Shown here piece after piece: positions 2,173 to 39,489 of a stretch of DNA of 40,448 nt. The notes under the pieces are model-generated. The model was not told where the DNA came from, ran no database searches, and was given only the letters and a program-made list of their open reading frames with translations. Source of the DNA: an uncultured bacterium (GTDB taxonomy: Bacteria; Hydrothermota; UBA3072). Each line of letters starts with the position of its first letter. Within the stretch, counting starts at the first letter, position 1. Where the stretch lies: the NCBI GenBank assembly GCA_964631335.1, contig CAZVXD010000002.1, forward strand, positions 2,073-42,520, written 5' to 3'. The translations under genes and the position numbers were made by a program.

Positions 2173-2201
2173 TTCTTTGTGCCTTTGTGACTTCGTGGCA
2201 T
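2173..2201 (+). repeat. 9-nt-period CTTTGTG-type module
   Basis: Units are TTCTTTGTG CCTTTGTGA CTTCGTGGC AT. It ends 8 nt before a -35 hexamer. Confidence 0.7.
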
Positions 2202-2209
2202 AAAAACAT

Positions 2210-2237
2210 TTGCGAAATTCCTTTTTCTTATTAATAT
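2210..2237 (+). promoter_or_regulatory. sigma70-type promoter, TTGCGA-16-TAATAT, for the PK_C-like gene
   Basis: Hexamers sit at 2210-2215 and 2232-2237. The SD-led ATG is at 2260. Confidence 0.5.
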
Positions 2238-2259
2238 ACATTATTAATAAGGAGGCCGT

Positions 2260-2835
2260 ATGGCAGAAATTTCCGTTAACACAGTTTATTTCAAAGAACC
2301 GGGAAAAATAAATACCGAAAGAACTTTAAAGATCGCACTAAACAGAGTTCAGGAACTCCGGCTCGAACAGATAGTTATCGCCTCGACCGTAGGATATACA
2401 GCACTGGAGGCAATGGAAGTTTTCAGAGATTATAATCCCATAATCGTAACTCATTCTTCCGGATTTAACAATCCGAACGAACAGGAAATGCCGGAGGAAA
2501 CGAGAAAACGACTCGAAGATATGGGCGCGACCGTACTGACCTGCCTGCATTCATTTGGAGGATTAGGAAGAGCCGTAAGAAAAAAATTCAACACTTACCA
2601 GCTGGACGATATAGTAGCAAACACGCTTCGTATTATGGGAGAAGGAATGAAAGTGGGATGTGAAATAACACTTATGGCTGCGGACGCTGGACTAATAAAC
2701 ACGAAAAAAGATACTGTTACGATTTCAGGAACAGGAAGAGGCGCAGACACAGCCCTGGTGATCAAACCGGCTAACACCCAGAACTTTTTCGACCTGCGAG
2801 TAAAAGAAATCCTCTGTAAACCCAGACTGGACTGA
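2260..2835 (+). CDS. pyruvate kinase alpha/beta (PK_C-like) domain-containing protein
   Basis: 191 aa with a strong AAGGAGG SD. It is collinear with the stand-alone PK_C-like family I remember (VYFxxPGxxNTExTL ... GTGRGADTAxVxKPAxxxNFFDLxxxEIxCKP). Confidence 0.65.
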   Translation: MAEISVNTVYFKEPGKINTERTLKIALNRVQELRLEQIVIASTVGYTALEAMEVFRDYNPIIVTHSSGFNNPNEQEMPEETRKRLEDMGATVLTCLHSFGGLGRAVRKKFNTYQLDDIVANTLRIMGEGMKVGCEITLMAADAGLINTKKDTVTISGTGRGADTALVIKPANTQNFFDLRVKEILCKPRLD

Positions 2836-2840
2836 TACTT

Positions 2841-2870
2841 AGGATTTTGGGATTGGGATTTAGGATTTAG
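2841..2870 (+). repeat. degenerate heptad array (AGGATTTT GGGATT GGGATTT AGGATTT AG)
   Basis: Read directly. It begins 6 nt after the stop of the PK_C-like gene. Confidence 0.75.
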
Positions 2871-2888
2871 TTAAAAAAAAATGGAGCA

Positions 2889-2917
2889 TTTGTGCTATTC
2901 GTGTAATTCGTTGGTTC
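2889..2917 (+). repeat. TTCGTG..TAATTYGTTG module copy
   Basis: TTTGTGCTATTCGTGTAATTCGTTGGTTC, flanked by an A9 run and a T10 run. Confidence 0.8.
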
Positions 2918-2929
2918 TCTTTTTTTTTT

Positions 2930-2983
2930 AAATTTTTGAATTTTAATCTGTAATTTTTCATTTTGATATTTGATTTTTACATT
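2930..2983 (+). repeat. AT-rich degenerate ~7-nt array (AATTTTT GAATTTT AATCTGT AATTTTT CATTTTG ATATTTG ATTTTTA)
   Basis: Read directly. It ends 9 nt before the GH115 -35 hexamer. Confidence 0.65.
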
Positions 2984-2992
2984 AGATTTGCC

Positions 2993-3021
2993 TTGACTTT
3001 CCCTGAAAAAACATTTATTAT
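2993..3021 (+). promoter_or_regulatory. sigma70-type promoter, ccTTGACT-17-TATTAT, for the GH115 gene (near-leaderless)
   Basis: The -10 ends 8 nt before the ATG at 3030, and there is no SD. Confidence 0.55.
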
Positions 3022-3029
3022 AAAGCGTA

Positions 3030-5918: not shown

Positions 5919-5953
5919 AAAAAACCCCACTGGTTTTCAGCGGGGTTTTTTTA
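5917..5953. terminator. bidirectional intrinsic terminator between GH115 gene and xylA
   Basis: AAAAAAAA-CCCCACTG-GTTTT-CAGCGGGG-TTTTTTT: an 8-position stem with one A/C mismatch, flanked by an A-run and a T-run, between convergent genes. It is the only clear hairpin-plus-U-tract I found in the window. Confidence 0.75.
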
Positions 5954-5976
5954 TTTATAAGAAATCTGAAATCTCT

Positions 5977-12685: not shown

Positions 12686-15016
12686 ATGTCAAAAGATGAA
12701 GTTTCGGTAGAAATAAAACAAAAATCCGATAAAAAGGATAATAATTTAAGATATTTGTCTTCAAAAAACAAAAAATCTTTTTTCCTGATCTTCGACAATT
12801 GTCCCTACCCAATTTTTCTCATAAACAAAGAAGGAATAATCGAAGATTTAAATCCGGCTTCTGCCAAACTATTAAAAAGAAAAAAAACGGAAATTCAAAA
12901 CAAAACCTTTCAAAAACTACTAAAAGAAGAATCGGAAAAATCATTTAATGAAAAATTCGACATTTTTATCAAAAAGGATTATAAAAAAATAGAATTTAAC
13001 ATCATTTTTAAGGGTAAAAAAACAGATTCCGACGTTACCTGCTCCGTTTTGCTGGTCAAACACGACAACACCAAAGACGACAGAATCATCCTTTTCGCAC
13101 ATGATATTACCGAGCTGAAAGAAGCACAGAAAGCGGCGGCTTTCAAAAGCAACCTTTTAACCTCTTTACTCGACAACATCCCTGATCATATTTACTTCAA
13201 AGACAAAAAAAGCCGTTTTGTTCAAGCGAGTAAATCTGTGGCAAATCAGTTTGGAGTTAAAAGCGTAAACGAACTTATAGGTAAAACCGATTTCGATTAT
13301 TTTACAAAAGAACACGCCGACCTGGCTTTTAACGATGAACAGGAAATAATAAAAACAGGTAACCCTATAGAAGTAAAAGTAGAAAAAGAAACACATCCGG
13401 ACGGAAGAATAACCTGGGTGTCAACAACCAAAATACCGAGATACGATGAAGAAGGAAATATCATCGGAATTCTTGGTATATCGAGGGACGTGACCAAAAG
13501 AAAAGAGCTGGAAGAAAAGCTGAAGCAGAAACTTGAGAAACTCGGAGAAGAAATTCTATTTAAAAGCCGTTTGCTTACTTCTCTTTTAAATAACATACCG
13601 GATCGCATTTATTTCAAAGACGAAAAAAGCCGATTCATAACCGTAAGTGAATCACTTGTCAGGTGGTTGGGAGCGGTGAACGCCGAAGAGATGATAGGAA
13701 AGACGGACTTTGATTATTTCACAGAAGAACACGCAGAACCAGCTTATGAAGATGAACAAAACGTCATGAAAACAGGTAAACCGATTGAAGGGAAAATGGA
13801 AAAGGAAACGCACTCTGACGGAAGAATAAGCTGGGTTTCAACAACCAAAATACCGAGATACGATGAAGAAGGAAACGTAATGGGAACACTCGGAATATCC
13901 AGAGACATTACGGATAAAGTACTGGCAGAGAAAAAACTCGAAGAAAGCGCGAACAAATTGAAAACCATAGTAAACGCGGTAAGCGAGGGACTGGCGATAA
14001 TCGACGAAAACCATATAATACTGGAAGCTAACGATTTTCTCTGTCAATTATTCGGCTTAAAAAGAGAAAAAGTAATAAACAAGAAATGCCATAAAATCTT
14101 TCCCCCGTGGGAAGAATCCTGCCGGGATTGCCCCCTTAAAAAAGTATTCGATAAAAAAGAAAGTTCCCCTCTAATAGAAAGAACAAAAGTATTAAAGAAC
14201 GGAACAATACAATATTTCAGCATCCAATGTTATCCTATTCCGAATTACAACGAAAAAGAACTTAAAAGCGTTATATCGATAAGAGATATAACCGAACGCA
14301 AAAACATGGAAAAGGAAAACATGCAAAATTACAAGAGAAAAATGAAAAATTTATCTCATAAATTAACTCTGGCGGAAGAACACGAAAGAAAAAGAATCGC
14401 GACCGATCTTCACGCGGACATCGGACAAACACTTGCCTTTTTGCAACTCAAGATTGGCGAACTAAAGGAAAAAAACTCCTCCCCTCAAATACAAAAATCA
14501 CTGCAGGAAATTTACAATCTCGTTCAGGATGCTATCACTTCAGCCCGTTCGCTGATGACACAGATCAGCCCCACGATTCTTTACGAACTCGGCTTTGAAC
14601 CAGCCGTAGACTGGTTAGCTGAAAATATTTTAAAGAAAAATAATATAGAATATGAATTTAACAACGACGGAAAGGAAAAACCGTTAACCGACGATATCGG
14701 CATCTTACTATTCCAGGCTGTTCGAGAATTATTGCTCAATATAAGAAAACACGCTAAGGCTAAAAAAGTAAAAATCTCAATAAAAAGATGCAAAGAAAAT
14801 ATTCAAATAATAATAGCCGATAATGGGATCGGGTTTGACATTTCTTCGTTAGATTCATATTGTGAAAAAGACGTAGGATTTGGCCTTTTAAATATACGTA
14901 GTCGTATCGACGTAGTAGGCGGATCCTTTGAAATAGAATCACACAAAAAAAGGGGAACCAAGATAACATTAAAAGCACCTATAAACACCTCAAAAGGAGT
15001 GTCGAATGAGCATTAA
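12686..15016 (+). CDS. cytoplasmic multi-PAS sensor histidine kinase (HisKA_3 / HATPase_c, NarL-partner type)
   Basis: No TM segment and at least four PAS-like regions. The dimerisation/phospho-acceptor box is HERKRIATDLHADIGQTL, and a GFGL ATPase lid is present. I prefer the ATG at 12686 because the ccTTGCAA/TAAAAT promoter lies inside the ORF-track extension (12596). Confidence 0.85.
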   Translation: MSKDEVSVEIKQKSDKKDNNLRYLSSKNKKSFFLIFDNCPYPIFLINKEGIIEDLNPASAKLLKRKKTEIQNKTFQKLLKEESEKSFNEKFDIFIKKDYKKIEFNIIFKGKKTDSDVTCSVLLVKHDNTKDDRIILFAHDITELKEAQKAAAFKSNLLTSLLDNIPDHIYFKDKKSRFVQASKSVANQFGVKSVNELIGKTDFDYFTKEHADLAFNDEQEIIKTGNPIEVKVEKETHPDGRITWVSTTKIPRYDEEGNIIGILGISRDVTKRKELEEKLKQKLEKLGEEILFKSRLLTSLLNNIPDRIYFKDEKSRFITVSESLVRWLGAVNAEEMIGKTDFDYFTEEHAEPAYEDEQNVMKTGKPIEGKMEKETHSDGRISWVSTTKIPRYDEEGNVMGTLGISRDITDKVLAEKKLEESANKLKTIVNAVSEGLAIIDENHIILEANDFLCQLFGLKREKVINKKCHKIFPPWEESCRDCPLKKVFDKKESSPLIERTKVLKNGTIQYFSIQCYPIPNYNEKELKSVISIRDITERKNMEKENMQNYKRKMKNLSHKLTLAEEHERKRIATDLHADIGQTLAFLQLKIGELKEKNSSPQIQKSLQEIYNLVQDAITSARSLMTQISPTILYELGFEPAVDWLAENILKKNNIEYEFNNDGKEKPLTDDIGILLFQAVRELLLNIRKHAKAKKVKISIKRCKENIQIIIADNGIGFDISSLDSYCEKDVGFGLLNIRSRIDVVGGSFEIESHKKRGTKITLKAPINTSKGVSNEH

Positions 15017-28475: not shown

Positions 28476-28494
28476 AAAAAAACAAAAATATAAA

Positions 28495-28525: not shown

Positions 28526-28550
28526 ATTACCTTGTTTTTACTTTGAACAT

Positions 28551-28571
28551 TGGACACTGGACTTTGGACAG
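28551..28571 (+). repeat. degenerate heptad array (TGGACAC TGGACTT TGGACAG)
   Basis: Read directly. Confidence 0.8.
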
Positions 28572-28581
28572 TTTTCTTCTT

Positions 28582-29058
28582 TCACAAATTTTTCTTAATA
28601 AAGATATCGAACATATGTACGCCAAAAACAGAAACAATACTAACAATTATACCGGCGATAATAACCCCTAAAATTACCGCTAAAAAGGACTTTCTTTTTT
28701 TCATTTTGAAAAACCATGCCCCGAGAGTTCCCGTATAAGCTCCGGTCACCGGCAGAGGTATTGCCACAAACAGTGTCAAACCGAGATAACCGTATTTCTC
28801 AACTTTCGGTCCTACCTTTCTTCTGGTTCTTTCGAGAAAAAAATCGAAATATTTCCTGTAAAACTTCAACTTCATCAACAAATCATGAATAAAGGTAAGG
28901 AATAAATAAAAAATGGGAAAAACTAAAATATTAGATAAAACAGCCACCGGAAAAACCACGGAAAGAGGCAATCCTGAAGAAAGACCCACAGGTATACCAC
29001 CACGAAGTTCTGATATAGGAAGAAGAGAAAAAATAATTATCTTTAATATCGGATTCAT
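28582..29058 (-). CDS. small multidrug-export-like membrane protein (COG2426 / Sm_multidrug_ex type)
   Basis: 158 aa. The motifs ISELRGGIPVGL and AIPLPVTGAYTG match my memory of this family. It starts 12 nt after tRNA-Ala. Confidence 0.6.
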   Translation of the reverse strand: MNPILKIIIFSLLPISELRGGIPVGLSSGLPLSVVFPVAVLSNILVFPIFYLFLTFIHDLLMKLKFYRKYFDFFLERTRRKVGPKVEKYGYLGLTLFVAIPLPVTGAYTGTLGAWFFKMKKRKSFLAVILGVIIAGIIVSIVSVFGVHMFDIFIKKNL

Positions 29059-29070
29059 AAGATTTCTAAT

Positions 29071-29143
29071 TGGAGGCGAGCGGACTCGAACCGCTGACCT
29101 CCTGCGTGCAAGGCAGGTGCTCTACCAGATGAGCTACGCCCCC
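29071..29143 (-). tRNA. tRNA-Ala (anticodon TGC)
   Basis: The reverse complement is GGGGGCGTAGCTCATCTGGTAGAGCACCTGCCTTGCACGCAGGAGGTCAGCGGTTCGAGTCCGCTCGCCTCCA. The cloverleaf folds, the G3:U70 identity pair is present, the anticodon loop is CTTGCAC, and no CCA is encoded. Confidence 0.93.
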
Positions 29144-29153
29144 ACAAAAAAAA

Positions 29154-29227
29154 TGGGCCTAAGTGGAATCGAACCACTCACCTCTCGCTTATCAGGCGAA
29201 CGCTCTAACCGACTGAGCTATAGGCCC
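29154..29227 (-). tRNA. tRNA-Ile (anticodon GAT)
   Basis: The reverse complement is GGGCCTATAGCTCAGTCGGTTAGAGCGTTCGCCTGATAAGCGAGAGGTGAGTGGTTCGATTCCACTTAGGCCCA. It has a 7-bp acceptor stem, anticodon loop CTGATAA and T-loop TTCGATT. Confidence 0.93.
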
Positions 29228-29239
29228 ACTATGTCCGTA

Positions 29240-29267
29240 AATATACAGGAAGCACCTTAAATGTCAA
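29240..29267 (-). promoter_or_regulatory. sigma70-type promoter, ctTTGACA-16-TATATT, for tRNA-Ile/tRNA-Ala
   Basis: Read on the reverse strand. The -10 ends 12 nt before the mature 5' end of tRNA-Ile. Confidence 0.6.
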
Positions 29268-29375
29268 GAGTGAAAACTGAACATGGCAAAACGGATATTG
29301 CAAAACATTAAACACAGAGAAACGATTCTGTTTAAAAATAAAAAAAATTGGCGAGCACACAGAGAAAGAATAAAA

Positions 29376-29397
29376 ACTCTGTGATCTTTGTGCTTCA
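29376..29397 (+). repeat. 9-nt-period module (ACTCTGTGA TCTTTGTGC TTCA)
   Basis: Two units ending in GTGCTTCA, followed by a G-rich block. Confidence 0.7.
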
Positions 29398-29423
29398 ATC
29401 TTTTGGGGGGTGGTGATGTGGAA

Positions 29424-29453
29424 TTCTGGATTCCGACTTCTAACTTCTAATTC
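29424..29453 (+). repeat. degenerate heptad array (TTCTGGA TTCCGAC TTCTAAC TTCTAAT TC)
   Basis: Read directly. It ends 8 nt before the hybrid kinase -35 hexamer. Confidence 0.8.
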
Positions 29454-29461
29454 AATCATCC

Positions 29462-29490
29462 TTGACAAAAGCTTTTTGAAAACCTATAAT
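29462..29490 (+). promoter_or_regulatory. sigma70-type promoter, ccTTGACA-17-TATAAT, for the hybrid kinase gene
   Basis: Perfect consensus hexamers with a 17-nt spacer, 50 nt upstream of the TTG start. Confidence 0.65.
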
Positions 29491-29540
29491 TTACTAATAA
29501 TTTTACATTATTTTAAAAAAAGTAAATACGGGAGATTTTT

Positions 29541-32132
29541 TTGAACGAAAAAAACGAAAACGAATTACTTAATATAATTGCTGAATTAATGATTCTTCAG
29601 GACCCTGAACACAAAATACTGTGGGTTAACAAAGCCGCACAAGAATCCATAAAAGGTAATTCGAGCGAAATTGTAGGACATTATTGCTTCGAAGTCTGGG
29701 CAGGCAAGACAAAACCCTGCCGGGATTGCCCTTTAGAAAAAGCTTTAAAAACCGGTAAAAAAGAAGAACAACAAATGTCCTCTCCGGACGGCAGGAATTG
29801 GATAGTCAAAGGATACCCTATAAAAAACGAAGACGGAGAATTAATTAATTTACTCGAAGTGGTAAGAAATGTGACCGATGAAATGAAACTGGAAGAGGCA
29901 CTGAAAGATTCCGAAGCACTCTATAAAACCCTTATCGATATCTCGCCTTACGGTGTGACCGTAACCGACCTGAAAGGCGAAATTACCTTTGCCTCACAGA
30001 AAACAGCAAAATTACACGGGTATAAAAATCCTGAAGAATTACTGGGAAAAAGCGCCATAGCATTAATAATCCCATCCGAACAAAAAAGGGCGTTAGCCAG
30101 CCTTAAAAGCACATTAGAAAAGGGAAGTTTAAAAAAATCAGAATACATGTTCCTAAGAAAAGACGGTTCTACTTTTGTAGGTGAAATCAACGCTTCTTTA
30201 ATAAAAGAGAATAGCGGACAACCACAGGCTTTCGTGGCAATCACCAGAGACATAACAAAACAAAGAGAAAACGAAAAAGAACTAAAAGAAAAAGAAGCCT
30301 TTAATTTCGCTTTATTTAATTACAGTCCAGCGGAAACTATCGTGGTGGATAAAGAAGGAAAGGTTATAAAAAGCAATTTAGCAAAAAGAAAATCCGGCGA
30401 CAGAACGCCAAAAATCGGCGATATCATGTATAAGGATTACGGATCCAAACACGAAACAGACATGTTCGCGGAACTAATGAACTGCATAAAAAAAGGTAAG
30501 GGAAAAGAATTTCCAAGAATGAAATACGAAAACAAATATCTTACTATAAGTATATCGCCTTTCCCTGAAGGAGCAATAATCATTTCCCAGGACATTACCG
30601 AACGTATTAAAGCCGAAGAAGCTCTAAAACAAAGCGAACAGAGATTTCGCTTAATCGTGGAAACAATGCCGAGCCTTCTGGTAATAACAGATAAAGAAGG
30701 GAAAAATCTGTACGTAAGCCCGAATTCCGAAGAAATAACCGGATACAGCCGTAAAGAACTTGAAAATAATTTTATCTGGTGGGTGCATGAAGACGATCTC
30801 GACCGGGCAAAAAAAGTTTTTAACACATCAATTAAAGAGCATACAGACGGAAGAAACTTTGAATATAAAGCCGTCAAAAAAGACGGCAAGGTATGGTACG
30901 CTTCAGGTTCCTGGCAACCGATAATAAACGAAAACGGTGATTTTCAGGGGATGATCTTGCAAACAATCGATATCTCAGACAGAAAAATAATGGAAGAGGA
31001 AATAGCCAAAGTTCAAAAGCTGGAATCCATAGGTATTCTTGCCGGGGGTATAGCTCACGACTTCAACAACTTTCTTACGGGAATCATAGGCAACATTTCA
31101 CTGGCAAAATTAAAAACAGATCCAAAAGATGAAATCTATGAAATACTTACCGAATCGGAAAAAGCAGCCCACAGCGCAAAGAGTCTAACTCAACAGCTTT
31201 TGACTTTCTCTAAAGGCGGTGTCCCAATCAAAGAGAAAACCGACATTAAGAATCTAATTAAGGAATCGGCTAAATTCGCCATCATCGGATCCAGCATAAA
31301 TTGCGATTTCGACTTTCAGGAAAATCTATGGGAAGTTATTATCGATAAAGCTCAAATGGCTCAGGTGGTGAACAACATAATTATAAACGCCATAGAAGCA
31401 ATACCTGAAGAAGGTACAATAACTATAAAAGCGGAAAATTGCGAAGTAAAAGAAACCGCAAAAATACCACTCAATGAAGGGAAATATGTAAAAATCACTT
31501 TTGAAGACACCGGAACAGGTATATCGGCTGAAAATATACCGAAAATCTTCGATCCTTTCTTTACGACAAAAGAAAGCGGCAGCGGTCTCGGTCTGGCAAC
31601 AGTTTTTTCTATTATAAAAAAACACAAAGGCTTTGTTTATGCTAAATCCGCAATAGACAAAGGAACGTCCTTCCATATCTATATTCCCGCTTCCGCAGAC
31701 AGGAAAACAGAAAGCGAAGAAAAAGAAACAAAAGAAAAAGCTCCAAAATCAAGCGGGAGGATTCTTATAATGGATGATAAAGCGTTTATCAGAAGATCCG
31801 CCGAAAGGGCTCTTAATTTATATGGTTACAATGTCTCAGGCGCGGAAAACGGAGAAAAAGCTTTGATTTTATATAAAGAAGCAATGAATAATAAAATCTC
31901 ATACGATGTCGTAATTCTCGACCTGACGGTTCCCGGGGCTATGGGAGGACTAAAAACATTAAAAGAGCTGCAAAAGATCGACCCTGACGTGAAAGCCATA
32001 GTTTCGAGCGGTTATTCTGACGACCCGGTAATGTCCGACCACGAGAAATTCGGTTTTAAAGCCATAATTAAGAAACCCTACGAATATCACGAACTCGCCG
32101 AAGCGGTAAAAAAATTAATCGAAGGAGATTAA
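29541..32132 (+). CDS. hybrid sensor histidine kinase / response regulator with multiple PAS domains
   Basis: 863 aa with a TTG start 5 nt after GGGAGA. It has at least 4 PAS-like segments, a HisKA box (GIAHDFNNFLTGIIGN), HATPase_c (GSGLGLATVFSII) and a C-terminal REC (ILIMDD ... VILDLTVPG). Confidence 0.9.
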   Translation: MNEKNENELLNIIAELMILQDPEHKILWVNKAAQESIKGNSSEIVGHYCFEVWAGKTKPCRDCPLEKALKTGKKEEQQMSSPDGRNWIVKGYPIKNEDGELINLLEVVRNVTDEMKLEEALKDSEALYKTLIDISPYGVTVTDLKGEITFASQKTAKLHGYKNPEELLGKSAIALIIPSEQKRALASLKSTLEKGSLKKSEYMFLRKDGSTFVGEINASLIKENSGQPQAFVAITRDITKQRENEKELKEKEAFNFALFNYSPAETIVVDKEGKVIKSNLAKRKSGDRTPKIGDIMYKDYGSKHETDMFAELMNCIKKGKGKEFPRMKYENKYLTISISPFPEGAIIISQDITERIKAEEALKQSEQRFRLIVETMPSLLVITDKEGKNLYVSPNSEEITGYSRKELENNFIWWVHEDDLDRAKKVFNTSIKEHTDGRNFEYKAVKKDGKVWYASGSWQPIINENGDFQGMILQTIDISDRKIMEEEIAKVQKLESIGILAGGIAHDFNNFLTGIIGNISLAKLKTDPKDEIYEILTESEKAAHSAKSLTQQLLTFSKGGVPIKEKTDIKNLIKESAKFAIIGSSINCDFDFQENLWEVIIDKAQMAQVVNNIIINAIEAIPEEGTITIKAENCEVKETAKIPLNEGKYVKITFEDTGTGISAENIPKIFDPFFTTKESGSGLGLATVFSIIKKHKGFVYAKSAIDKGTSFHIYIPASADRKTESEEKETKEKAPKSSGRILIMDDKAFIRRSAERALNLYGYNVSGAENGEKALILYKEAMNNKISYDVVILDLTVPGAMGGLKTLKELQKIDPDVKAIVSSGYSDDPVMSDHEKFGFKAIIKKPYEYHELAEAVKKLIEGD

Positions 32133-32140
32133 AAATCAAC

Positions 32141-32165
32141 TAACCACGAAATACACAAAACACAC
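32141..32165 (-). repeat. 9-nt-period module, reverse orientation (GTGTGTTTTGTGTATTTCGTGGTTA on the minus strand)
   Basis: It begins 9 nt after the hybrid kinase stop codon. Confidence 0.65.
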
Positions 32166-32211
32166 TAAATTTTTTATTGTCTTTTTGTAAACCCAACCCA
32201 CCTCCAAATCA

Positions 32212-32242
32212 GAAACAACAAATCACACGAACAGTACAAATG
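32212..32242 (-). repeat. TTCGTG..TAATTYGTTG module copy (reverse, diverged)
   Basis: The minus strand reads CATTTGTACTGTTCGTGTGATTTGTTGTTTC. Confidence 0.65.
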
Positions 32243-32257
32243 ATCCTATTTTCTTTA

Positions 32258-32289
32258 CTCAAGACTCACGACGCCCGACTCAAGGCTCA
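32258..32289 (+). repeat. degenerate heptad array (CTCAAGA CTCACGA CGCCCGA CTCAAGG CTCA)
   Basis: Read directly. A second array follows (AACTACT CTCTACT TACTGCT AACGGCT ATCTACA) up to the mnmG -35. Confidence 0.75.
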
Positions 32290-32330
32290 TTTAACTACTC
32301 TCTACTTACTGCTAACGGCTATCTACACCA

Positions 32331-32358
32331 TTGACTATTCATATTTCTCTTCTAATAT
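32331..32358 (+). promoter_or_regulatory. sigma70-type promoter, TTGACT-16-TAATAT, for mnmG-pilD-DUF4416
   Basis: The -10 ends 15 nt before the ATG at 32374, and there is no SD. Confidence 0.5.
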
Positions 32359-32373
32359 TAAAGCAAGAAAAAA

Positions 32374-34248
32374 ATGGAAAAAGAAACAAAGAAATTCGAT
32401 GTAATAGTTGTGGGAGGAGGGCACGCGGGAATAGAAGCAGCACTTGCCTCTACCCGGAGAGGTTTTGATACTCTGCTACTTACCATAAGTCCTGAACTTA
32501 TAGGTCAGATGTCCTGCAACCCTTCCATAGGCGGCGGAGCAAAATCCCAGCTGGTTTTCGAAGTAGACGCCCTGGGGGGAGAGATGGCTTACAATACCGA
32601 TATTACCGGAATACAATTTAAAATGTTAAACTCGAAAAAAGGTCCCGCCATATGGGCTCTTCGGGCGCAATCAGACAGAAAAGATTACAGGGAAACAATA
32701 AAAAAAACACTATTGAATGAAGTACCGGCTAAAAATGAAAAAGTAACAGGAATCATTGTAGAAAGGAAAAGAATAAAAGGAGTTAAAACAGCTTCAGGGA
32801 AAGAGTTCTTCTCAGACGCTGTTGTACTTACCACAGGTACTTTTCTCTCCGGATTAATCCACATAGGACTTGAATCGTTCCCTTCCGGAAGATTGGGTGA
32901 ACCTCCTTCAATAGGCTTATCGGATTCTTTAAAGAAAAATGGCCTCAAACTCGGACGTCTCAAAACAGGCACTTCAGCCCGCGTAGATATGAGATCGATA
33001 GATCTATCAAAAACGACAATTCAACCGGGAGACGAAGACCCACTCAATTTTTCTTACAGAACCAGGGAATTCAATCCTCCCAACGTGCCATGCTTCCTGA
33101 CCTGGACGAATAAAAACACTCACGATATTATACGTAAAAACTTGAAATATTCTCCCCTGGTTCAGGGTAAAATAACCGGAGTAGAACCGAGATATTGTCC
33201 TTCTCTGGAAACAAAAATTCTGAAATTCCCGGAGAAAACTCATCACCATGTTTTTATAGAACCCGATGGATTGGATACTCACGAAGTCTATTTAAACGGA
33301 GTATCTTCTTCCCTGCCGGAAGAAATACAGGAACAATTTTTAAAAACAATACCCGGACTCGAAAACGTGAAAATTATAAAACCTGGTTACGCGGTCGAAT
33401 ATGACTTCGTACCTCCGACGCAACTTAAACACTCACTGGAAACGAAAGCAATAGAGGGTTTATTTCTGGCAGGGCAGATAAACGGAACTTCCGGATACGA
33501 AGAAGCAGCGGCTCAGGGAATAATCGCCGGTATAAACGCGACTCTAAAAATAGAAAAAAAGGGATACCTGGCTCTAAGAAGGGATGAAGCCTATATCGGA
33601 GTTCTAATAGACGATTTAGTCATAAAAGGCACGGAAGAACCCTACCGTATGTTTACTTCAAGAGCGGAACACCGTTTACTGTTAAGACAGGATAACGCCG
33701 ATCTTAGACTCGCCGGATATGGTTACAATCTGGGTCTTCTGAGCAAAGAAAGATTTGAACAGGTCGAGGAAAAAAAGGAAAAAATAAAAGAAACCGAAAC
33801 CCTCCTTAAAAAGACAATTATAACGCCTAAAGATGTTCCGGTAATAAAAAAACCGGTAAACGCGTTCAGCCTGGCTAAAAGAGCCGATTTCGAGATCGAC
33901 GATATAGAAAAGATAACAGGAATAAAAATAAACAAAAACATCAAGAATACTATCAGAATAAATATCCGTTACGACGGATATACAGAGCGGGCAACTAGAA
34001 AAATAAAAGAATTAAAGAAGATGGAAAATTTTCGTATACCTCCGGAGGTGGATTATGCCAAAATTCAGGGAATATGTACCGAAAGCATCGAAAAGCTGAA
34101 TCGCATCAAACCCGAAACTTTCGGTCAGGCGACCAGAATCTCAGGAGTTAAACCCACCGATATGCAGGCACTTATGTCTTATATATCCAGAATCAGCAAC
34201 ACTAAAAAATCCCGTAAAACGACTGAAAAACAAGGAGCAAAAAAATAA
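32374..34248 (+). CDS. mnmG: tRNA uridine 5-carboxymethylaminomethyl modification enzyme
   Basis: 624 aa, GidA/MnmG sequence throughout ([16 protein letters not shown] ... MSCNPSIGG ... RPGYAVEYD ... [16 protein letters not shown]). Confidence 0.95.
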
Positions 34249-35504: not shown

Positions 35505-35537
35505 ACAGATTAACACAAGATTCTTTATTGTTTTTTT

Positions 35538-35569
35538 AACCCGAAACACGAAACCCGTAACTCGAAACT
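35538..35569 (+). repeat. degenerate heptad array (AACCCGA AACACGA AACCCGT AACTCGA AACT)
   Basis: Read directly. Confidence 0.8.
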
Positions 35570-35630
35570 TCAGCTGCAAGAAATTCTTTAACCGTTAGCC
35601 ATTTCCAGTTTTGGCTTACCACCCAAGCCC

Positions 35631-35646
35631 CATGACTCATGACTCA
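35631..35646 (+). repeat. heptad doublet (CATGACT CATGACT CA)
   Basis: Read directly, 11 nt before a -35 hexamer. Confidence 0.7.
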
Positions 35647-35657
35647 AATAATTTCCC

Positions 35658-35691: not shown

Positions 35692-37185
35692 ATGAAAAGG
35701 TTAATATTCGTTCCGATACTTTTCGCGCTTTTTATCATATCTAACTGTACTCCTTCTATACAGGTTGCCTCAGAAGAAGAAGTAGACAAGATTTATGAAA
35801 ATGCCATGAAAGCATACGCCGAACAAAATTATAAAGAAGCAAATGACTTGTTTTTATTAGTTGCAAAAAGCAGTGAATCCAAAAAATTGAAAGCCAATTC
35901 TTTTTTTTATCTTGGCGAAATAAATAAAGCAACGTCGAATTACGGTAAAGCGCTTATCAGTTATGCGGCCGCGAGCCACTACGGAATAAAAACAGAAGAA
36001 AGCATAAAAGAACTGGCGGCTCTGGCGGATTTGAATTCTCTGGAGCAATCTATTTCCTACTCCTCCGAAGATCTGAAACCTTATCTATTATATACTCTCG
36101 CCAGAAAACTTCAAAGTGTAGGAAAAGAAAAAGAAAGTCAAAAATTCTTCTCTGAAATCGAAAAGAAATATCCGACCAGCGAATACGCCAGAAAAGCAAA
36201 ATATATGGCCCGGCACAAAGGCAAAACCAGGGTCGGTGTACTTTTGCCTCTCACCGAAATTTACAGCAAAACCGCGGAATCGGTGAAAAAAGGCATAGAT
36301 GTGGGTTCGAAAGATAATTTCATTCCCCTTTACATAGACACAAAAGGCAATCCGGTTTTAAGCTATAAAGAAGCTGTAGAGTTAATAAAAGAAAAAAGAG
36401 TTTCTGGTATTATAGGTCCTCTTTTTTCACGAAATTGCTTCGCAGTTGCTTGCATCTCCGATTATATAGGAATACCATTTATTTCTCCTACAGCCACAAA
36501 AGAATTTATAGATTCTGTGGGAGATCAATGTTATATAATAAACAGGACGATAGAACTACAGGCAAAAGCTATAGCAGATTACGCTGTCACCAGGCTCGGC
36601 CTCAGAACCTTCTCGATTTTTTATCCGTATTCTGATTACGGGGAAACATTTGAACAATTCTTTTCCGAAAAAGTCAAAGAGTTAGGCGGAGCGATAGTCA
36701 ACTCGATCTCTTTCAGAGAAGGAAAAAAGGATTTTCAGGATGAATTAAAAAGAATAAAAGAGAACAATCCCGATGCCGTATATATTCCAGCAGCCACGCA
36801 AGACGTACCCGCGATCGCGAGTCAGATAAAATATCTGGGTATAAAATCACAGATTCTGGGAGCGGATGAGTGGAAATCAAAAGAGATATTCAGACAACAG
36901 GTCGGCGCGTCCGCCTTAGAAGGAATAATAATATCCGAAAGCCCCTTCAATCCAACTGATGAGTTTTCGGAAGAATTCAACTATATTTTCAGAAAAGAAC
37001 CGGATAGATATGCCTGTCTCGGATACGACGCGGCCACTCTAATGGGAGAACTCCTGCAAAATCCGGATAATACAGGCAGATTAAGAAATATTAAATTAAC
37101 AGCAGGGTCTATCGGCACTAAAGATTCATATGAAAACGTACATATCTACATGATAAGCAAAGGTGATTTCAAACGTATAAAATAG
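35692..37185 (+). CDS. lipoprotein with N-terminal TPR-like region and type-I periplasmic-binding (LivK/LpoA-like) domain
   Basis: 497 aa with a lipobox (FIISNC). A helical TPR-like first 170 aa is followed by a Peripla_BP_6-like domain (RVGVLLPLT ... GIIGPLFS ... PFISPTAT). Confidence 0.6.
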   Translation: MKRLIFVPILFALFIISNCTPSIQVASEEEVDKIYENAMKAYAEQNYKEANDLFLLVAKSSESKKLKANSFFYLGEINKATSNYGKALISYAAASHYGIKTEESIKELAALADLNSLEQSISYSSEDLKPYLLYTLARKLQSVGKEKESQKFFSEIEKKYPTSEYARKAKYMARHKGKTRVGVLLPLTEIYSKTAESVKKGIDVGSKDNFIPLYIDTKGNPVLSYKEAVELIKEKRVSGIIGPLFSRNCFAVACISDYIGIPFISPTATKEFIDSVGDQCYIINRTIELQAKAIADYAVTRLGLRTFSIFYPYSDYGETFEQFFSEKVKELGGAIVNSISFREGKKDFQDELKRIKENNPDAVYIPAATQDVPAIASQIKYLGIKSQILGADEWKSKEIFRQQVGASALEGIIISESPFNPTDEFSEEFNYIFRKEPDRYACLGYDAATLMGELLQNPDNTGRLRNIKLTAGSIGTKDSYENVHIYMISKGDFKRIK

Positions 37186-37193
37186 GAGGCACC

Positions 37194-37409
37194 ATAAAAA
37201 GAAAAAGCAACGAAAAACTTTACTGGGAAAAAACCAATTCTATTATTTTCGCTTCGGGGATTTTAGCAATAATTATAGGCTATATATTCCTCGCAAGGGA
37301 ATCTCTTACCTTAGCTCCTATACTTTTAGTATTGGGATACGCCGTATTAATTCCAATTTCCCTCGTTTACAAAGGCTGGATAAAGAAAGAAGGCAATAGC
37401 GAGAAGTAA
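37194..37409 (+). CDS. possible small two-TM membrane protein (DUF3098-like) lacking a canonical start codon
   Basis: The open frame 37167-37409 encodes ...KRKSNEKLYWEKTNSIIFASGILAIIIGYIFLARESLTLAPILLVLGYAVLIPISLVYKGW..., with two clear TM helices. AGGAGG at 37184-37189 precedes it. There is no in-frame ATG/GTG/TTG before the first TM helix, and the best candidate is ATA at 37194. Confidence 0.3.
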   Translation: MKRKSNEKLYWEKTNSIIFASGILAIIIGYIFLARESLTLAPILLVLGYAVLIPISLVYKGWIKKEGNSEK

Positions 37410-37413: not shown

Positions 37414-37431
37414 CTGGGTTTTAGGGTTTAG
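37414..37431 (+). repeat. degenerate heptad array (CTGGGTTTT AGGGTTT AG)
   Basis: Read directly. Confidence 0.6.
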
Positions 37432-37447
37432 TTAAAACAACCAATTT

Positions 37448-37492
37448 TCTCTGTGCTCTTTGTGTTCTTTTCTCTGTGTACTCTGTGGTTCA
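37448..37492 (+). repeat. 9-nt-period module, CTCTGTG variant, five units ending CTCTGTGGTTCA
   Basis: The sequence is TTCTCTGTGCTCTTTGTGTTCTTTTCTCTGTGTACTCTGTGGTTCA. It ends 7 nt from the stop codon of the Memo-AMMECR1 gene. Confidence 0.8.
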
Positions 37493-37499: not shown

Positions 37500-38918
37500 T
37501 TATTCCTTTTCCGAGAACACAATCGCCTGGAATTTCCAGAGCTCCGAAGACTTCCACGCATCAGCAGGCAGACTCGCTTTATAACATAAATGTTCAAGGA
37601 ATGTTGCCTTATCCCAACCCTGTTCAACAGGAACCTGCGGAAGCAGTAAACCACTCATATATCCTCTTTTTATCATCAAGCCGTCTCTTCCGACTTTTAT
37701 ATCATTGACATTATCGACCTTCTGCATGGGGGTGAGAACGGATATTTCAATTTCGAGATTATCTATTTCGGAAGGGGTAACGGGAGGAAATCTATAGTCC
37801 TGTGTGGCTGCAGCTATTGCCATATCGCGGATTATAAGGAATAAAGGTTTGTCTCCTATAATATGACCTATACATCCCCTGAGAGTTTCCTCTCTTTTAA
37901 GGGTAACAAAAGCTCCGCAGTTTGTTTTCAAGGTTTCGTCTTCAATTTTAAAATCCGGAATCCTTTTATTTCTTACATATTCATTTATGGTTTTTCTGGC
38001 TATTCCCAACAATTTTCCTTTTTCTTTCTCAGTCAAATTAAATTCAAACTGAGATTCCAAATCTCCGCTTTCAGCCGTATTTATAGTATTACCGGTAAAT
38101 ATCCAGGAACCATAGCCGACTATATACCCGCTCTTTTCCCCTGTGACATCACCCGAGTTAGTCCTCTTAAGAAGACTTACTTTCTTAACTCCCATCTTCT
38201 CCATTACTTCCAATAAAACAGCAATACCCGAACATCCACATGCCGCGCAAGCTCCCGCTGCTCTCATTTCCCTGTCATATCTCAGCAGTCCTTCATAATC
38301 AAAATTATTTATATATTCATCCACTCTATCCGTAACCGTTTTCGCTTCATTGTAATCGTATCCGTGATATAAATCCGACGAAACTATAATCACCCAATCA
38401 TTCCTATCTTTTAATTCCTCGTAAAGAGCATCGGTAAGAACAGAAAGTTCCGGAATTCGATCGGTATTAAAAACAATAGGGACTATTTTAAAATCCTCAA
38501 GAATTTTCTGCAAAAAGGGTATCTGAACCTCGAGGGAATGTTCCCTCAAATGGGCTTCGGGCTCATTTTCTATGAGGTCGCTGTAAGATTTTAATTTTTC
38601 AGCGAAATCTTCATCTATACTTACCGTTCCGAGAGGCGTCTGCCACTTTCCTTGATCATAAACCGAAAAACCTTTAACATAATAACGATGGGAAGGTCCC
38701 AAAAGGATAACAAGTTTCTTGTTTTTATTTTTTAAAGCCCCGAAGGCAAAAGCCGCTGTCTGCCCGCTGTATACATATCCCGCGTGCGGGGAAACAACCC
38801 CGTAAATTTCGTCTTCTACTTTAACATCGGCATTATTTAAAAACTGATCTATCATAGATGAAAGATCCGAAGAATCCGCGACATAGAAAGACCCGGCGAC
38901 AAATGGTTTCCTTACCAT
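37500..38918 (-). CDS. fused AmmeMemoRadiSam system protein B (Memo-like) / protein A (AMMECR1 domain)
   Basis: The N-terminal half is Memo-like (MVRKPFVAGSFY ... VVSPHAGYVYSG). The C-terminal half is AMMECR1 (GAFVTLKREETLRGCIGHI ... GLLLPQV). I place the start at 38918, where GGGAGG lies 6 nt upstream. The ORF-track start at 38984 adds 22 residues that are unlikely to be real. Confidence 0.8.
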   Translation of the reverse strand: MVRKPFVAGSFYVADSSDLSSMIDQFLNNADVKVEDEIYGVVSPHAGYVYSGQTAAFAFGALKNKNKKLVILLGPSHRYYVKGFSVYDQGKWQTPLGTVSIDEDFAEKLKSYSDLIENEPEAHLREHSLEVQIPFLQKILEDFKIVPIVFNTDRIPELSVLTDALYEELKDRNDWVIIVSSDLYHGYDYNEAKTVTDRVDEYINNFDYEGLLRYDREMRAAGACAACGCSGIAVLLEVMEKMGVKKVSLLKRTNSGDVTGEKSGYIVGYGSWIFTGNTINTAESGDLESQFEFNLTEKEKGKLLGIARKTINEYVRNKRIPDFKIEDETLKTNCGAFVTLKREETLRGCIGHIIGDKPLFLIIRDMAIAAATQDYRFPPVTPSEIDNLEIEISVLTPMQKVDNVNDIKVGRDGLMIKRGYMSGLLLPQVPVEQGWDKATFLEHLCYKASLPADAWKSSELWKFQAIVFSEKE

Positions 38919-39002
38919 TTCTGACCTCCCTTTACAATTCAAAGAAAAGAATAAAAAAATTATACAAAAGATTAATCTGTACATTATAGATTTCCAATTA
39001 AA

Positions 39003-39092
39003 CGGAGAGGCAGGGATTCGAACCCTGGAAGGAGCTTTTGACCCCTTAACCGATTAGCAATCGGTTGCCTTCGGCCACTCGGCCACCTCTCC
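39003..39092 (-). tRNA. tRNA-Ser (anticodon GCT)
   Basis: The reverse complement is GGAGAGGTGGCCGAGTGGCCGAAGGCAACCGATTGCTAATCGGTTAAGGGGTCAAAAGCTCCTTCCAGGGTTCGAATCCCTGCCTCTCCG. It is a class II tRNA with a long variable arm and anticodon loop TTGCTAA. Confidence 0.9.
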
Positions 39093-39094
39093 CT

Positions 39095-39176
39095 CGGAGG
39101 GTGAGGGACTCGAACCCCCAAGGGTGTAAACCCGCCGGATTTCAAATCCGGTGCCTTACCATTAGACTAACCCTCC
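39095..39176 (-). tRNA. tRNA-Ser (anticodon TGA)
   Basis: The reverse complement is GGAGGGTTAGTCTAATGGTAAGGCACCGGATTTGAAATCCGGCGGGTTTACACCCTTGGGGGTTCGAGTCCCTCACCCTCCG. It has a variable-arm stem GGGT/ACCC and anticodon loop TTTGAAA, and lies 2 nt from the next tRNA. Confidence 0.88.
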
Positions 39177-39186
39177 CTTTAAAGCA

Positions 39187-39214
39187 ATATTAGCAACCAT
39201 GTAACAAAAGTCAA
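39187..39214 (-). promoter_or_regulatory. sigma70-type promoter, tcTTGACT-16-TAATAT, for the tRNA-Ser pair
   Basis: Read on the reverse strand. The -10 ends 10 nt before the tRNA-Ser(TGA) 5' end. Confidence 0.6.
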
Positions 39215-39223
39215 GAGGAATTC

Positions 39224-39254
39224 AGGTTTTAGGTTTCAGGTCTTGGGTTTTAGG
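39224..39254 (+). repeat. degenerate heptad array (AGGTTTT AGGTTTC AGGTCTT GGGTTTT AGG)
   Basis: Read directly. Confidence 0.8.
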
Positions 39255-39257
39255 CAT

Positions 39258-39320
39258 TATAATTTTTAATTTTGAATTTTGAGTTTTTAATTTAACATTA
39301 AACATTCAACATTCATAATT
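39258..39320 (+). repeat. AT-rich heptad array (TAATTTT TAATTTT GAATTTT GAGTTTT TAATTTA ACATTAA ACATTCA ACATTCA TAATT)
   Basis: Read directly. Confidence 0.75.
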
Positions 39321-39347
39321 ATTGTTGTGTTCTCTGTGTAAATGAAT

Positions 39348-39380
39348 TAGTCGTTAGTCTCCAGTCACTGGTCGTTTGTC
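39348..39380 (+). repeat. degenerate heptad array (TAGTCGT TAGTCTC CAGTCAC TGGTCGT TTGTC)
   Basis: Read directly. Its last units are homologous to the outer end of the 148-bp repeat. Confidence 0.8.
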
Positions 39381-39430
39381 AAAAGAAAAGAATAATTCGT
39401 GCTATTAGTGTAATTTGTTGTTCCTTGTTT
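39366..39430 (+). repeat. diverged third copy of the outer ~70 nt of the 148-bp repeat
   Basis: CACTGGTCGTTTGTCAAAAGAAAAGAATAATTCGTGCTATTAGTGTAATTTGTTGTTCCTTGTTT aligns with 15822-15892 at roughly 85 percent identity with small gaps. Confidence 0.8.
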
Positions 39431-39457
39431 GGGATGGAGAGGGTAAAACAAATAAAA

Positions 39458-39489
39458 ATCTTTGCGATCTTCGTGAACTTTGTGGTTCA
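39458..39489 (+). repeat. 9-nt-period module (ATCTTTGCG ATCTTCGTG AACTTTGTG GTTCA)
   Basis: Three units ending in GTGGTTCA, followed by a G-rich block that abuts the GTPase stop. Confidence 0.8.

Follow-up and report, generated by a model that had tools for sequence, protein, structure and literature searches.

A 40,448-nucleotide (nt) stretch of DNA from an uncultured Hydrothermota bacterium (assembly GCA_964631335.1, contig CAZVXD010000002.1, positions 2,073 to 42,520; hereafter the window) carries many copies of a short intergenic module, in which about three 9-nt units with the core CTTYGTG run into a fixed end. The module, whose architecture is defined and recurs across phyla, forms inverted terminal arms around genes for GxxExxY proteins in at least five phyla. 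Complete cassettes are far fewer than gene-less arm pairs and single arms. We consider it very probable that the module family represents the arm of GxxExxY cassettes. For the copies in the window we favor, with less assurance, the reading that they are gene-less members of this family of selfish-cassette arms, without any gene-specific role. We note that the GxxExxY protein belongs to a PD-(D/E)XK nuclease family and that its function is not known.

Modules and GxxExxY genes were found together in a search for outward-facing module pairs with near-identical arms. At the Planctomycetaceae locus recovered in this way (L112), a 137-amino-acid (aa) gene lies between hisF and hisH, and the flanking arms are identical at 31 of 32 positions. 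The gene belongs to PF13366 (PDDEXK_3, E=4e-40) and TIGR04256 ("GxxExxY protein"). A second GxxExxY gene, at an acidobacterial locus (L035), adjoins an outward-facing pair. Fourteen further GxxExxY loci were picked by protein homology alone, and nine of them carry inverted module arms on both sides (L148, L153, L156, L165, L168, L169 from Bernardetia, L170 from Gemmatirosa, L172 from Bacteroides finegoldii, and L182 from Ignavibacteriales), with partial arms at three and none at two. All five planctomycete-type genes have reverse-complement modules upstream and sense modules downstream, in the settings hisH-gene-hisF, purL-gene-purQ (three times), and murB-gene-ddl. Among eight genes from the plasmid collection, those of Bernardetia, Gemmatirosa, and B. 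finegoldii are armed on both sides. The Ignavibacteriales gene, between a DUF72 gene and dinB, has arms of ATCTGTG type that match at 15 of 16 positions. The less complete cases are a Sphingomonas gene between fabD and fabG with an upstream arm only, a Treponema locus with a single inverted unit, and a Fusobacteria plasmid locus with direct repeats of ATCCGTG units.

The arms are concentrated at the gene and matched to each other. Across seven cassettes, 27 two-unit matches fell in the 4.1 kb adjacent to the gene, compared with three in the other 28.7 kb. Arm complementarity in nine cassettes was 22-26 of 26 positions (85-100%), spacers included, against a best background match of 17-18 of 26 at three loci with no clear inverted arms (L171, L173, and L174) and about 77% in gene-less pairs. 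Orthologous purL/purQ cassettes differ in unit type and number, with both arms changing together (two CACAAAG units in one, two CACAGAG units plus one CACAAAG unit in another). When the L112 cassette was folded as RNA, its two arms closed as a stem of about 40 bp (z=-7.3).

The complete element can be written as 5'-(T)TGAACCAC(RAAGnn)2-4 ... GxxExxY gene ... (nnCTTYGTG)2-4 GTTCA(A)-3', with inverted arms whose GGTTCA ends point outward, set in short gaps of housekeeping operons. The stop codon of the upstream gene falls inside or against the arm (TGA within TTGAACC at L148, TAA within CACTAAG at L153), and in the cassettes examined the downstream gene starts 9-13 nt past the second arm. Further GxxExxY genes are wedged between radA and the next gene and between ade and manC. 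As a separate observation, the loci in which a GxxExxY gene is wedged between adjacent, functionally linked genes are L112, L148, L153, L156, L165, L168, L171, L172, L169, and L182. Many GxxExxY genes also lie on contigs of only about 1 kb, a pattern to be expected from assemblies that break at flanking repeats.

The GxxExxY family (TIGR04256/PF13366) has at least about 8,000 relatives. A superfamily survey lists PF13366 as of unknown function and with multiple transfers between divisions (PMC3424549), which fits a selfish element. The association with the module appears undescribed in the searchable literature, where the family is only listed or named in the mentions checked. Arms can also enter a protein-coding gene. 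In an Anaerolineales metagenome-assembled genome (MAG; L091, 454-4971, plus strand), a 1505-aa open reading frame (ORF) of MmeI/Eco57I-like restriction-modification type carries translated, in-frame arm pairs at three or four sites (such as EPQRAQRTQRE...LSDLRVLRG), with two reading frames of the module in use. We considered the module as a coding sequence, given that a 9-nt period keeps the frame, but rejected this since L091 uses two frames and intergenic copies lie in both orientations. Most copies that appeared to be inside ORFs in GC-rich loci were in spurious ORFs or upstream of the Pfam-supported part of the protein.

The module is widespread beyond these cassettes. An exact-pattern scan of one genome per Genome Taxonomy Database (GTDB) species with the pattern TTNGYGNNCTTTGTGGTTCA returned at least 119 loci. 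This count alone is near the chance expectation for 1.2e12 positions, but the matches are not explained by chance because positions left free in the pattern are conserved. A C precedes the second unit (position -20) in 94% of the listed matches; a third in-phase unit is visible among them (T 85%, T 72%, G 65%, T 63%, G 64%); and an A follows TTCA in 61%. Positions +4 to +8 after GGTTCA are T rich (T frequency 0.47-0.63), GC-rich genomes included, and in several cases many matches came from single genomes. The main hosts are Acidobacteriota, Planctomycetota, Chloroflexota, and MAGs resembling candidate division WOR-3; further hosts are Cyanobacteria (Calothrix, Fischerella), Bacteroidota, Ignavibacteria, Myxococcota, and several Proteobacteria. 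Cultured carriers include Adhaeretor mobilis, Endozoicomonas elysicola, and a Flavobacterium, and the GC content of carrier loci ranges from 30% to 73%.

The common architecture is a run of about three CTTYGTGnn units (9 nt each) leading into GTGGTTCA. Within the units, the CTTYGTG core is conserved and the 2-nt spacers vary freely. Unit number peaked sharply at three (two units in 33 copies, three in 95, four in 7, and five or more in 1), a distribution that unconstrained slippage would not produce. The end, GTGGTTCA(A), is fixed and not repeated, and its variants GGTTAA, GGCAAA, and GTGAA also occur at cassette ends. Module termini read 5'-TG...CA-3'. An inverted partner lay no more than 200 nt upstream in 51 of 129 copies of the cross-phylum set, and outward-facing pairs outnumbered inward-facing ones by 51 to 10 across phyla and by 8 to 1 in low-GC loci. 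In 41 low-GC loci, 126 of 144 modules were intergenic, although intergenic DNA makes up 17% of these loci. On crude gene calls, modules occupied co-directional, convergent, and divergent gaps roughly as chance predicts. In an acidobacterial MAG (L010, 4840-4908), we observed a 68-nt arm pair that occupies the gap between the pheS stop and the pheT start, where the pheS TGA is followed by TGAACC.

Several searches for a known identity or partner were negative. Rfam, at gathering and E-value thresholds, left the modules unmatched in the window and 18 loci of other phyla and returned only tRNAs and one 6S RNA. A full-text literature search with module sequence strings returned unrelated primers only. 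No recurrent neighboring protein family or linked transposase was found, the largest cluster being 7 of 119 among the matches listed. Module strand was not significantly associated with GC skew (46 versus 56), and a keto (G+T) skew of the flanks was modest in the window and absent across phyla. A BLAST search of plasmids with a consensus arm pair gave two cyanobacterial matches only and was uninformative. Viral contigs gave 18 exact matches, about 12 of them with a third unit, which is roughly the chance level and no evidence for a phage vector.

In the window, modules are numerous and confined to the spaces between genes. The window has a GC content of 39.4%, sigma-70-type promoters, and strong Shine-Dalgarno sites. 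Its gene content is ordinary and chromosomal, including sugar and tripartite ATP-independent periplasmic (TRAP) transport, PAS histidine kinases, mnmG, and tRNAs, and it encodes an oxidoreductase whose 71%-identity homologues carry the name candidate division WOR-3. Copies were scored with a weight matrix of one unit summed across three units, used in place of an nhmmer profile built from anchored copies, which was too rigid. Chains of three units scoring at least 18 bits numbered nine in the window and zero in 10 dinucleotide shuffles, and all 15 chains of at least 16 bits were intergenic, against an intergenic share of 12%. An earlier sequence-only reading of the window had listed 14 copies, and a sequence check found every one of these stretches (Table 1). 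Thirteen of the 14, plus eight further copies, score above the shuffle-free threshold; the degenerate copy 4 reaches 11 bits on the unit matrix and the remaining 13 are clear. At least eight copies were absent from that list, mainly of an AT-rich ATTCGTG subtype, and the unlisted family members comprise seven ATTCGTGnTATTCGTGTAATTTGTTGTTC-subtype copies, an extra copy, and an inverted half-copy. Unit subtypes in the window are TTTCGTA, TTTnGTG, CTCTGTG, and ATTCGTG.

The first reading held that most copies run into GGTTCA. The hexamer is exact in 6 of the 14 copies and has one mismatch in another five; copies 1, 2, and 10 end in GGCAT, TGAAC, and GTCCA (two mismatches from GGTTCA), respectively. 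Its claim that units within a copy are closer to each other than to units of other copies was borne out by a position-preserving permutation (p<1e-4). We note that this similarity stems from the subtypes, in which all units share one variant; the eight canonical copies alone gave p=0.39. The suggestion of iterated binding sites is in keeping with the peak at three units, which fits a recognized entity such as a binding array.

Comparison with relatives that preserve synteny (97%, 95%, 85%, and 80% protein identity) showed that copies in the WOR-3 lineage are dispensable and hypervariable, changing by unit insertions and deletions, by exchange of segments, and by switches of subtype. Module 14 consists of three units in the window but of two, plus substitutions, in L120 (97% identity), whereas its flanks of about 560 nt differ at a handful of positions, all within other tandem-unit tracts. 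The middle of module 13 is, in L120, a segment matching the 36-nt hairpin extension beside window copies 7 and 9, a sign of exchange among dispersed copies. All examined relatives (80-95% identity) keep a module upstream of the oxidoreductase promoter, alike in position and orientation and different in subtype: CTTTGTG type in the window and L123, CTCTGTG type ending in GTGAGA in L125 and L126, and ATTCGTG type in L128. The concerted change that the sequence-only reading had proposed is thus visible both as unit slippage, in module 14, and as a switch of all units at an orthologous site. The divergent histidine-kinase and tRNA-Ile promoters are separated by about 190 nt of modules in the window and by 75 nt in L128; in L126 these promoters are 8 nt apart, with no module between them. 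Subtype turnover and the module-free promoters of L126 indicate that modules are dispensable for these promoters and turn over fast, and the unit structure is maintained despite this turnover. As a side observation, the 95%-identity relative L122 carries an IS3-family element (1375-2640, HTH_Tnp_1 and rve ORFs) at the C-rich box beside its module 9 orthologue.

Modules in WOR-3-like loci are embedded in a lineage-specific arrangement. We counted 99 modules in 166 kb of WOR-3-like sequence, and density in the wider low-GC set was about one per 385 nt of intergenic DNA. The copies of the window, which comes from a WOR-3 relative, are gene-less arms only, mostly single or in same-direction tandems, within a composite that contains G-rich boxes and an AT-rich linker. 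The order of this composite is AT-rich module, T run, G-rich box, linker TTTAAACAAAATATAATTTTTGTTGTTTT, CTTTGTG-type module with its GGTTCA end, T run, and G-rich box. On 47 module sides a G-rich box lay no more than 35 nt away, without exception on the strand of the module, and no side had a C-rich box at this distance; all nine G-rich boxes in the window likewise share the strand of the neighboring module. Boxes such as GGTTGGGTGGGGTGG are similar to the G-quadruplex element located upstream of pilE in Neisseria, and the boxes next to modules could fold into quadruplexes of two or three tetrads. Two subtypes of the window, AT-rich and CTCTGTG, are also present in Calothrix and a planctomycete of 67% GC, and the CTCTGTG, CTCCGTG, CTTCGCG, ATCCGTG, and ATCTGTG subtypes, gene-less in WOR-3-like loci, stand beside GxxExxY genes elsewhere.

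Promoters in these loci face one end of the module. Eighteen promoters of the form TTGAC[AT]-N15-19-TAnnnT start 10-55 nt past the GGTTCA end on the module strand, and none does in the mirror arrangement; within 150 nt of modules, the counts are 29 versus 10. Each of the promoters beside modules precedes a ribosome-binding site and a gene, or a tRNA, and the distance from module to -35 hexamer ranges from 10 to 64 nt. Such polarity is expected of an inserted element whose outer boundary is the GGTTCA end; it is at the same time the principal point in favor of the rival view, in which the module is an upstream promoter element.

We propose that the window copies would descend from GxxExxY cassettes. 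The arms would be recognition sites of the element, probably bound by the GxxExxY protein through the three 9-nt units, and they may pair as single-stranded DNA or RNA; in an operon transcript, the resulting stem would loop out the inserted gene. Spread could occur by mobilization in trans or by ectopic recombination, and the window copies would have been reshaped by unit slippage. A bolder version, which we put forward only tentatively and think on balance doubtful, is that GxxExxY genes and triple-nonamer arms form an unrecognized class of mobile element using neither an HUH nor a DDE enzyme. Such elements would spread between phyla, insert precisely between operon genes, and be tolerated through transcript arm pairing that loops out or excises the insert, as an mRNA counterpart of rRNA intervening sequences, and their gene-less arms would multiply into a sizeable share of intergenic DNA in WOR-3-like lineages.

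Some observations weigh against an origin of the window copies in GxxExxY cassettes. Neither the window nor about 166 kb of WOR-3-like sequence yielded a GxxExxY gene, which makes the link in this lineage one of family resemblance only. The two of 14 homology-picked loci without arms are those of Prevotella and Persicobacter. At 19 of 20 well-defined outward-facing pairs there was no target-site duplication, which leaves classical cut-and-paste by a DDE enzyme unsupported, and transposition by the GxxExxY nuclease family would be a hypothetical mechanism. Inverted pairs are few in the window, where most copies are single or same-direction tandems. The composite with co-oriented G-rich boxes was not seen in other phyla and could mean a host function in the WOR-3 lineage. 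Finally, module 10 is almost unchanged in the 85%-identity relative and the promoter-proximal site is occupied in all relatives, both of which are compatible with constraint. The dismissal of a mobile-element origin in the sequence-only reading is not supported: the module forms the inverted terminal arms of GxxExxY cassettes in many phyla, an orthologous site in a relative is module-free, and arms have inserted in frame into a restriction-modification gene.

Other explanations place the module outside the element or give it a host role. GxxExxY genes might insert into pre-existing arm hairpins, which would make the arms targets and not parts of the element, but arms match much better in gene-bearing units. 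The modules could also be host cis-elements, that is, three-site arrays for a conserved DNA-binding protein near promoters, acting as an activator site, roadblock, or insulator, with GxxExxY genes merely landing nearby. The conserved core with free spacers, the near-fixed unit number, the 18 to 0 promoter asymmetry, the module that relatives of 80-95% identity keep ahead of the oxidoreductase promoter, and the strict co-orientation of G-rich boxes all suit such a role. We nevertheless find it unlikely, as the same promoters are module-free in L126, the distance to the -35 hexamer varies, a 9-bp period puts the sites off one helix face, and further modules occur in convergent gaps, at the 3' ends of genes, and within an ORF. 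Among the matches listed, no regulator gene is a recurrent neighbor, the complete subtype change at an orthologous site is hard to reconcile with a fixed protein specificity, and an element terminus gives the promoter asymmetry equally well.

A role mainly as RNA seems more unlikely still. Inverted pairs would then be bidirectional terminators or RNase III targets, and antisense singles (UGAACCACAAAG..., C/A rich) would be Rho entry or protein-binding tracts in 3' untranslated regions. Inverted pairs do have A-rich left and T-rich right flanks, about half with T-rich 3' flanks in line with the T-rich positions +4 to +8; copy 11 and its inverted half-copy form a hairpin followed by a T run on the minus strand (z=-3.9); and the cassette arms form their long closing stem. 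Paired copies may incidentally act as hairpin terminators. Canonical terminator-like sites (hairpin plus U-tract) are not enriched at window positions 15000-33000, with 20 found versus 18.8 expected and almost all within genes, which is also in keeping with an RNA-level role. The sequence-only reading had further counted 10 of 13 copies downstream of a gene as antisense to it and proposed a role in read-through RNA. The count is correct for the window, but its binomial p is about 0.09 and the bias is gone in the larger sample: the 144 modules of the 41 low-GC loci lie 58 antisense versus 50 sense to the neighboring gene's 3' end and 56 versus 54 with respect to its 5' end. With no general orientation bias, we rejected the Rho-entry and read-through reading. 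Moreover, divergent promoter regions hold modules at about the chance share, and single copies, folded together with their flanks, did not outperform shuffles (z +1.0 to -1.6). A selected RNA helix in gene-less pairs was likewise rejected. Their 77% complementarity is that of two independent draws from the consensus, partner mismatches show no excess of G-U over A-C (101 versus 87), and the 2-nt spacers are not complementary. Cyanobacteria, which are not known to encode Rho, also carry the module. That the modules are functionless simple-sequence DNA from local replication slippage in AT-rich spacers, never dispersed and alike across copies and phyla by convergence, is strongly disfavored and in our view highly improbable. 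The window's intergenic DNA is indeed rich in other short tandem-unit tracts, 9-nt units are gained or lost between near-identical relatives, and units within a copy are alike. Slippage of this kind is nonetheless at odds with the conserved non-repetitive GTGGTTCA end, the sharp three-unit peak, the identical architecture at 30-73% GC in many phyla, the near-perfect inverted arms 0.4-0.9 kb apart around one gene family, and the flanks of 60-160 nt shared by dispersed copies.

Among known systems, repetitive extragenic palindromic (REP) sequences, their inverted doublets (REPINs), and the REP-associated tyrosine transposase (RAYT) are functionally closest to the module family (Bertels & Rainey 2011, PMC3116915; Quentin et al. 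2018, PMC6006769). Both systems comprise short intergenic repeats of very high copy number, as singlets and inverted doublets, with a small nuclease-type gene flanked by repeats and a gene-independent location, and in both the singlets are more decayed than gene-adjacent doublets. The differences are also clear. A REP is an imperfect palindrome of 20-40 nt, whereas the module arm consists of three direct 9-nt units and a fixed end. REPs have a conserved 5' GTAG or CGTC tetranucleotide foot (PMC3733652, PMC6006769); the module lacks this foot and ends in TGAACC/GGTTCA. RAYT (TnpA_REP) is a Y1 HUH transposase, in contrast to the flanked gene here, a multi-copy PF13366 PD-(D/E)XK GxxExxY gene, and REPs are specific to a species or RAYT, unlike the module, whose sequence is common to several phyla.

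Miniature inverted-repeat transposable elements (MITEs) resemble the module in having terminal inverted repeats with 5'-TG...CA-3' ends, in their small size, in inserting beside genes, and in the existence of both numerous gene-less copies and empty sites in relatives. The module differs from MITEs in that neither a target-site duplication nor a DDE transposase partner was found, that the arms have internal repeats and evolve by slippage of units, and that many arms are solo or in same-direction tandems. Intervening sequences of 23S rRNA (S23p type, as in Leptospira and Coxiella) contain a small ORF within long inverted repeats that form a closing stem in the transcript. An ORF looped by a long stem and an insertion tolerable inside an essential transcription unit are common to both, but GxxExxY cassettes lie between protein-coding cistrons and have a different ORF family. 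The short tandemly repeated repetitive (STRR) sequences are tandem heptamers (CCCCAGT, TTGGTCA, or CAACAGT) restricted to heterocystous cyanobacteria. Like STRRs and cyanobacterial small dispersed repeats, module loci have intergenic DNA filled by short tandem tracts with very small repeats nested in it; Calothrix and Fischerella carry both types, and CTGGTCA units resembling STRR2 are present in the window. Unlike STRRs, module units are 9 nt long, number about three, have a defined end and a linked gene family, and are distributed far beyond Nostocales.

Rickettsia palindromic elements, reportedly described by Ogata and colleagues in 2000, are said to be selfish and to insert in frame into protein-coding genes, where they are translated. 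The in-frame arm insertion in the L091 restriction-modification gene is similar, although the Rickettsia elements are confined to one lineage, the module sequence is unrelated, and the in-frame case was seen once. Iteron or transcription-factor arrays share direct repeats, constant spacing, and conserved contact positions with the module. The 3' end of the module faces promoters (18 versus 0) at variable distance, and the same promoters are also found module-free. Other resemblances were considered and dropped: the DnaA box, with 7 of 9 matches at the end only; MraZ repeats, whose 10-bp period does not fit; and a CRP half-site, boxA, extracytoplasmic function (ECF) sigma factor -35/-10 spacing, IHF, the tRNA T-arm, and Escherichia coli 16S h44 (CTTTGTGATTCA), where spacing or key bases misfit.

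If the DNA partner of GxxExxY is indeed this arm of roughly 30 nt, with its three nonamers and fixed end, a testable hypothesis follows for the protein's target. The link would also account for a conspicuous class of repeats between genes in WOR-3, Acidobacteriota, Planctomycetota, Bacteroidota, and others, for the many small spurious ORFs that arise from the modules (with HKG/HEG, FVS, or TKD repeats), and for the contigs of about 1 kb that carry GxxExxY genes. For annotation, we suggest that modules be masked as repeats and called neither genes nor regulatory RNAs. Were it true that the arms let a gene sit harmlessly between hisH and hisF or between purL and purQ, this would be a new way for selfish DNA to hide in essential transcription units.

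Table 1. Modules and associated features in the window, in window coordinates.
Feature	Position	Strand	Remarks
Module copy 1	2173-2201	+	Three units, 8-nt period, end GGCAT; about 12 nt upstream of a TTGCGA -35-like hexamer
AT-rich copy A1 (ATTTGTGCTATTCGTGTAATTCGTTGGTTC)	2888-2917	+	
159-nt composite, left copy	15814-15972		97% identical, inverted, to 19072-19230
AT-rich copy A2	15852-15883	+	Within the 159-nt inverted repeat
Module copy 2	15946-15977	+	Terminal pentamer TGAAC in place of GTTCA
Short mixed copy A4 (CTTTGTGTAATTCGTTGTTTC)	16030-16050	+	
Extra copy (TTTCGTGTCTTAGAGCCTTCGCGGCA)	18986-19011	-	11 nt upstream of the dctP -35 hexamer; arrangement also in relative L125
Module copy 3	19067-19098	-	GGTTCA end exact
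AT-rich copy A3	19161-19192	-	Duplicate of A2
Module copy 4	23420-23472	+	Degenerate, units ATCTGTG-like
Module copy 5	23491-23520	+	
Module copy 6	23623-23653	+	TTTCGTA subtype; kept in relative L125
Module copy 7 and 36-nt extension	23671-23735	+	Extension contains a small GC hairpin (ATATTATGTGTTAGCGATTTAACCGCG...)
Module copy 8	27138-27167	-	32 nt upstream of the oxidoreductase promoter
AT-rich copy A5	27214-27244	-	
Module copy 9 and 36-nt hairpin extension	27362-27426	+	
Module copy 10	28495-28525	+	Near-identical in relative L125
Inverted half-copy and module copy 11	29353-29397	+	Half-copy 29353-29371, module copy 11 29376-29397
Module copy 12	32141-32165	-	TTTnGTG subtype
AT-rich copy A6	32212-32241	-	
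Module copy 13	37448-37492	+	Five CTCTGTG units, between two convergent stop codons
AT-rich copy A7	39395-39424	+	
Module copy 14	39458-39489	+	Three units
G-rich box GGTTGGGTGGGGTGG	39498-39512	+	8 nt past the GGTTCA end; one of nine
Other G-rich boxes	2131-2145, 19042-19056(-), 23611-23622, 27116-27129(-), 27348-27361, 29405-29421, 32192-32205(-), 39431-39443		

Copies 8 and 9 are the window's one outward-facing inverted pair, 93% complementary and 194 nt apart. The two copies of the 159-nt composite flank the dctPQM TRAP operon. Each consists of GGTCAC units, an A run, an AT-rich module, a T run, AAATTT units, and a CTTTGTG module, and the terminal pentamer is inverted between them (CTTTGTG followed by TGAAC on the left, by GTTCA on the right). 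In this region of relative L125, kduI is directly followed by dctP, and the amino-acid permease gene (window 19401-20717) is absent. A distinct MITE-like element, about 150 nt long and bounded by the terminal inverted repeats GAGGCTGTGCC...GGCACAGCCTC, is inserted at about 1665-1810 in L125 between a small exporter gene and a LVIVD gene, and a fragment related to it is present at about 15750-15815 in the window.

Module 13 ends, as the sequence-only reading correctly noted, 7 nt from the stop codon of an ORF at 37500-38984 (minus strand). On the other side of this module, a small conserved ORF ends at 37409 (plus strand). It encodes a small membrane protein (...LAIIIGYIFLARESLTLAPILLVLGYAVLIPISLVYKGWIKKEGNSEK*; window about 37190-37409, plus strand), lies downstream of 35692-37185, is conserved in L120, L121, and L126, and falls below the 80-aa cut-off of the ORF list.

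Other short tandem-unit tracts, co-oriented with the modules, are found in the intergenic DNA of the window at 2836-2867, 37417-37432, 39222-39254, 28446-28475, 27179-27213, 15814-15835, 39348-39380, 35630-35648, 15981-16013, and 35531-35569. Their units include telomere-like TTTAGGG/TTAGGA, AGCTTTT/GCCAAAG, CTGGTCA (the STRR2-like unit), GACTCAT, and GTTTCGRG, and similar heptamer tracts lie beside modules in Planctomycetota and Chloroflexota loci (L045, L077, L088, L095, and L025). A clear bidirectional terminator is present at window 5919-5960. The genes for tRNA-Ala(tgc) and tRNA-Ile(gat), a pair whose usual site is the rRNA spacer, stand alone in the window at 29070-29228 (minus strand), with their own strong promoter (29267-29240) and no rRNA genes nearby, an arrangement that is kept in L126 and L128.

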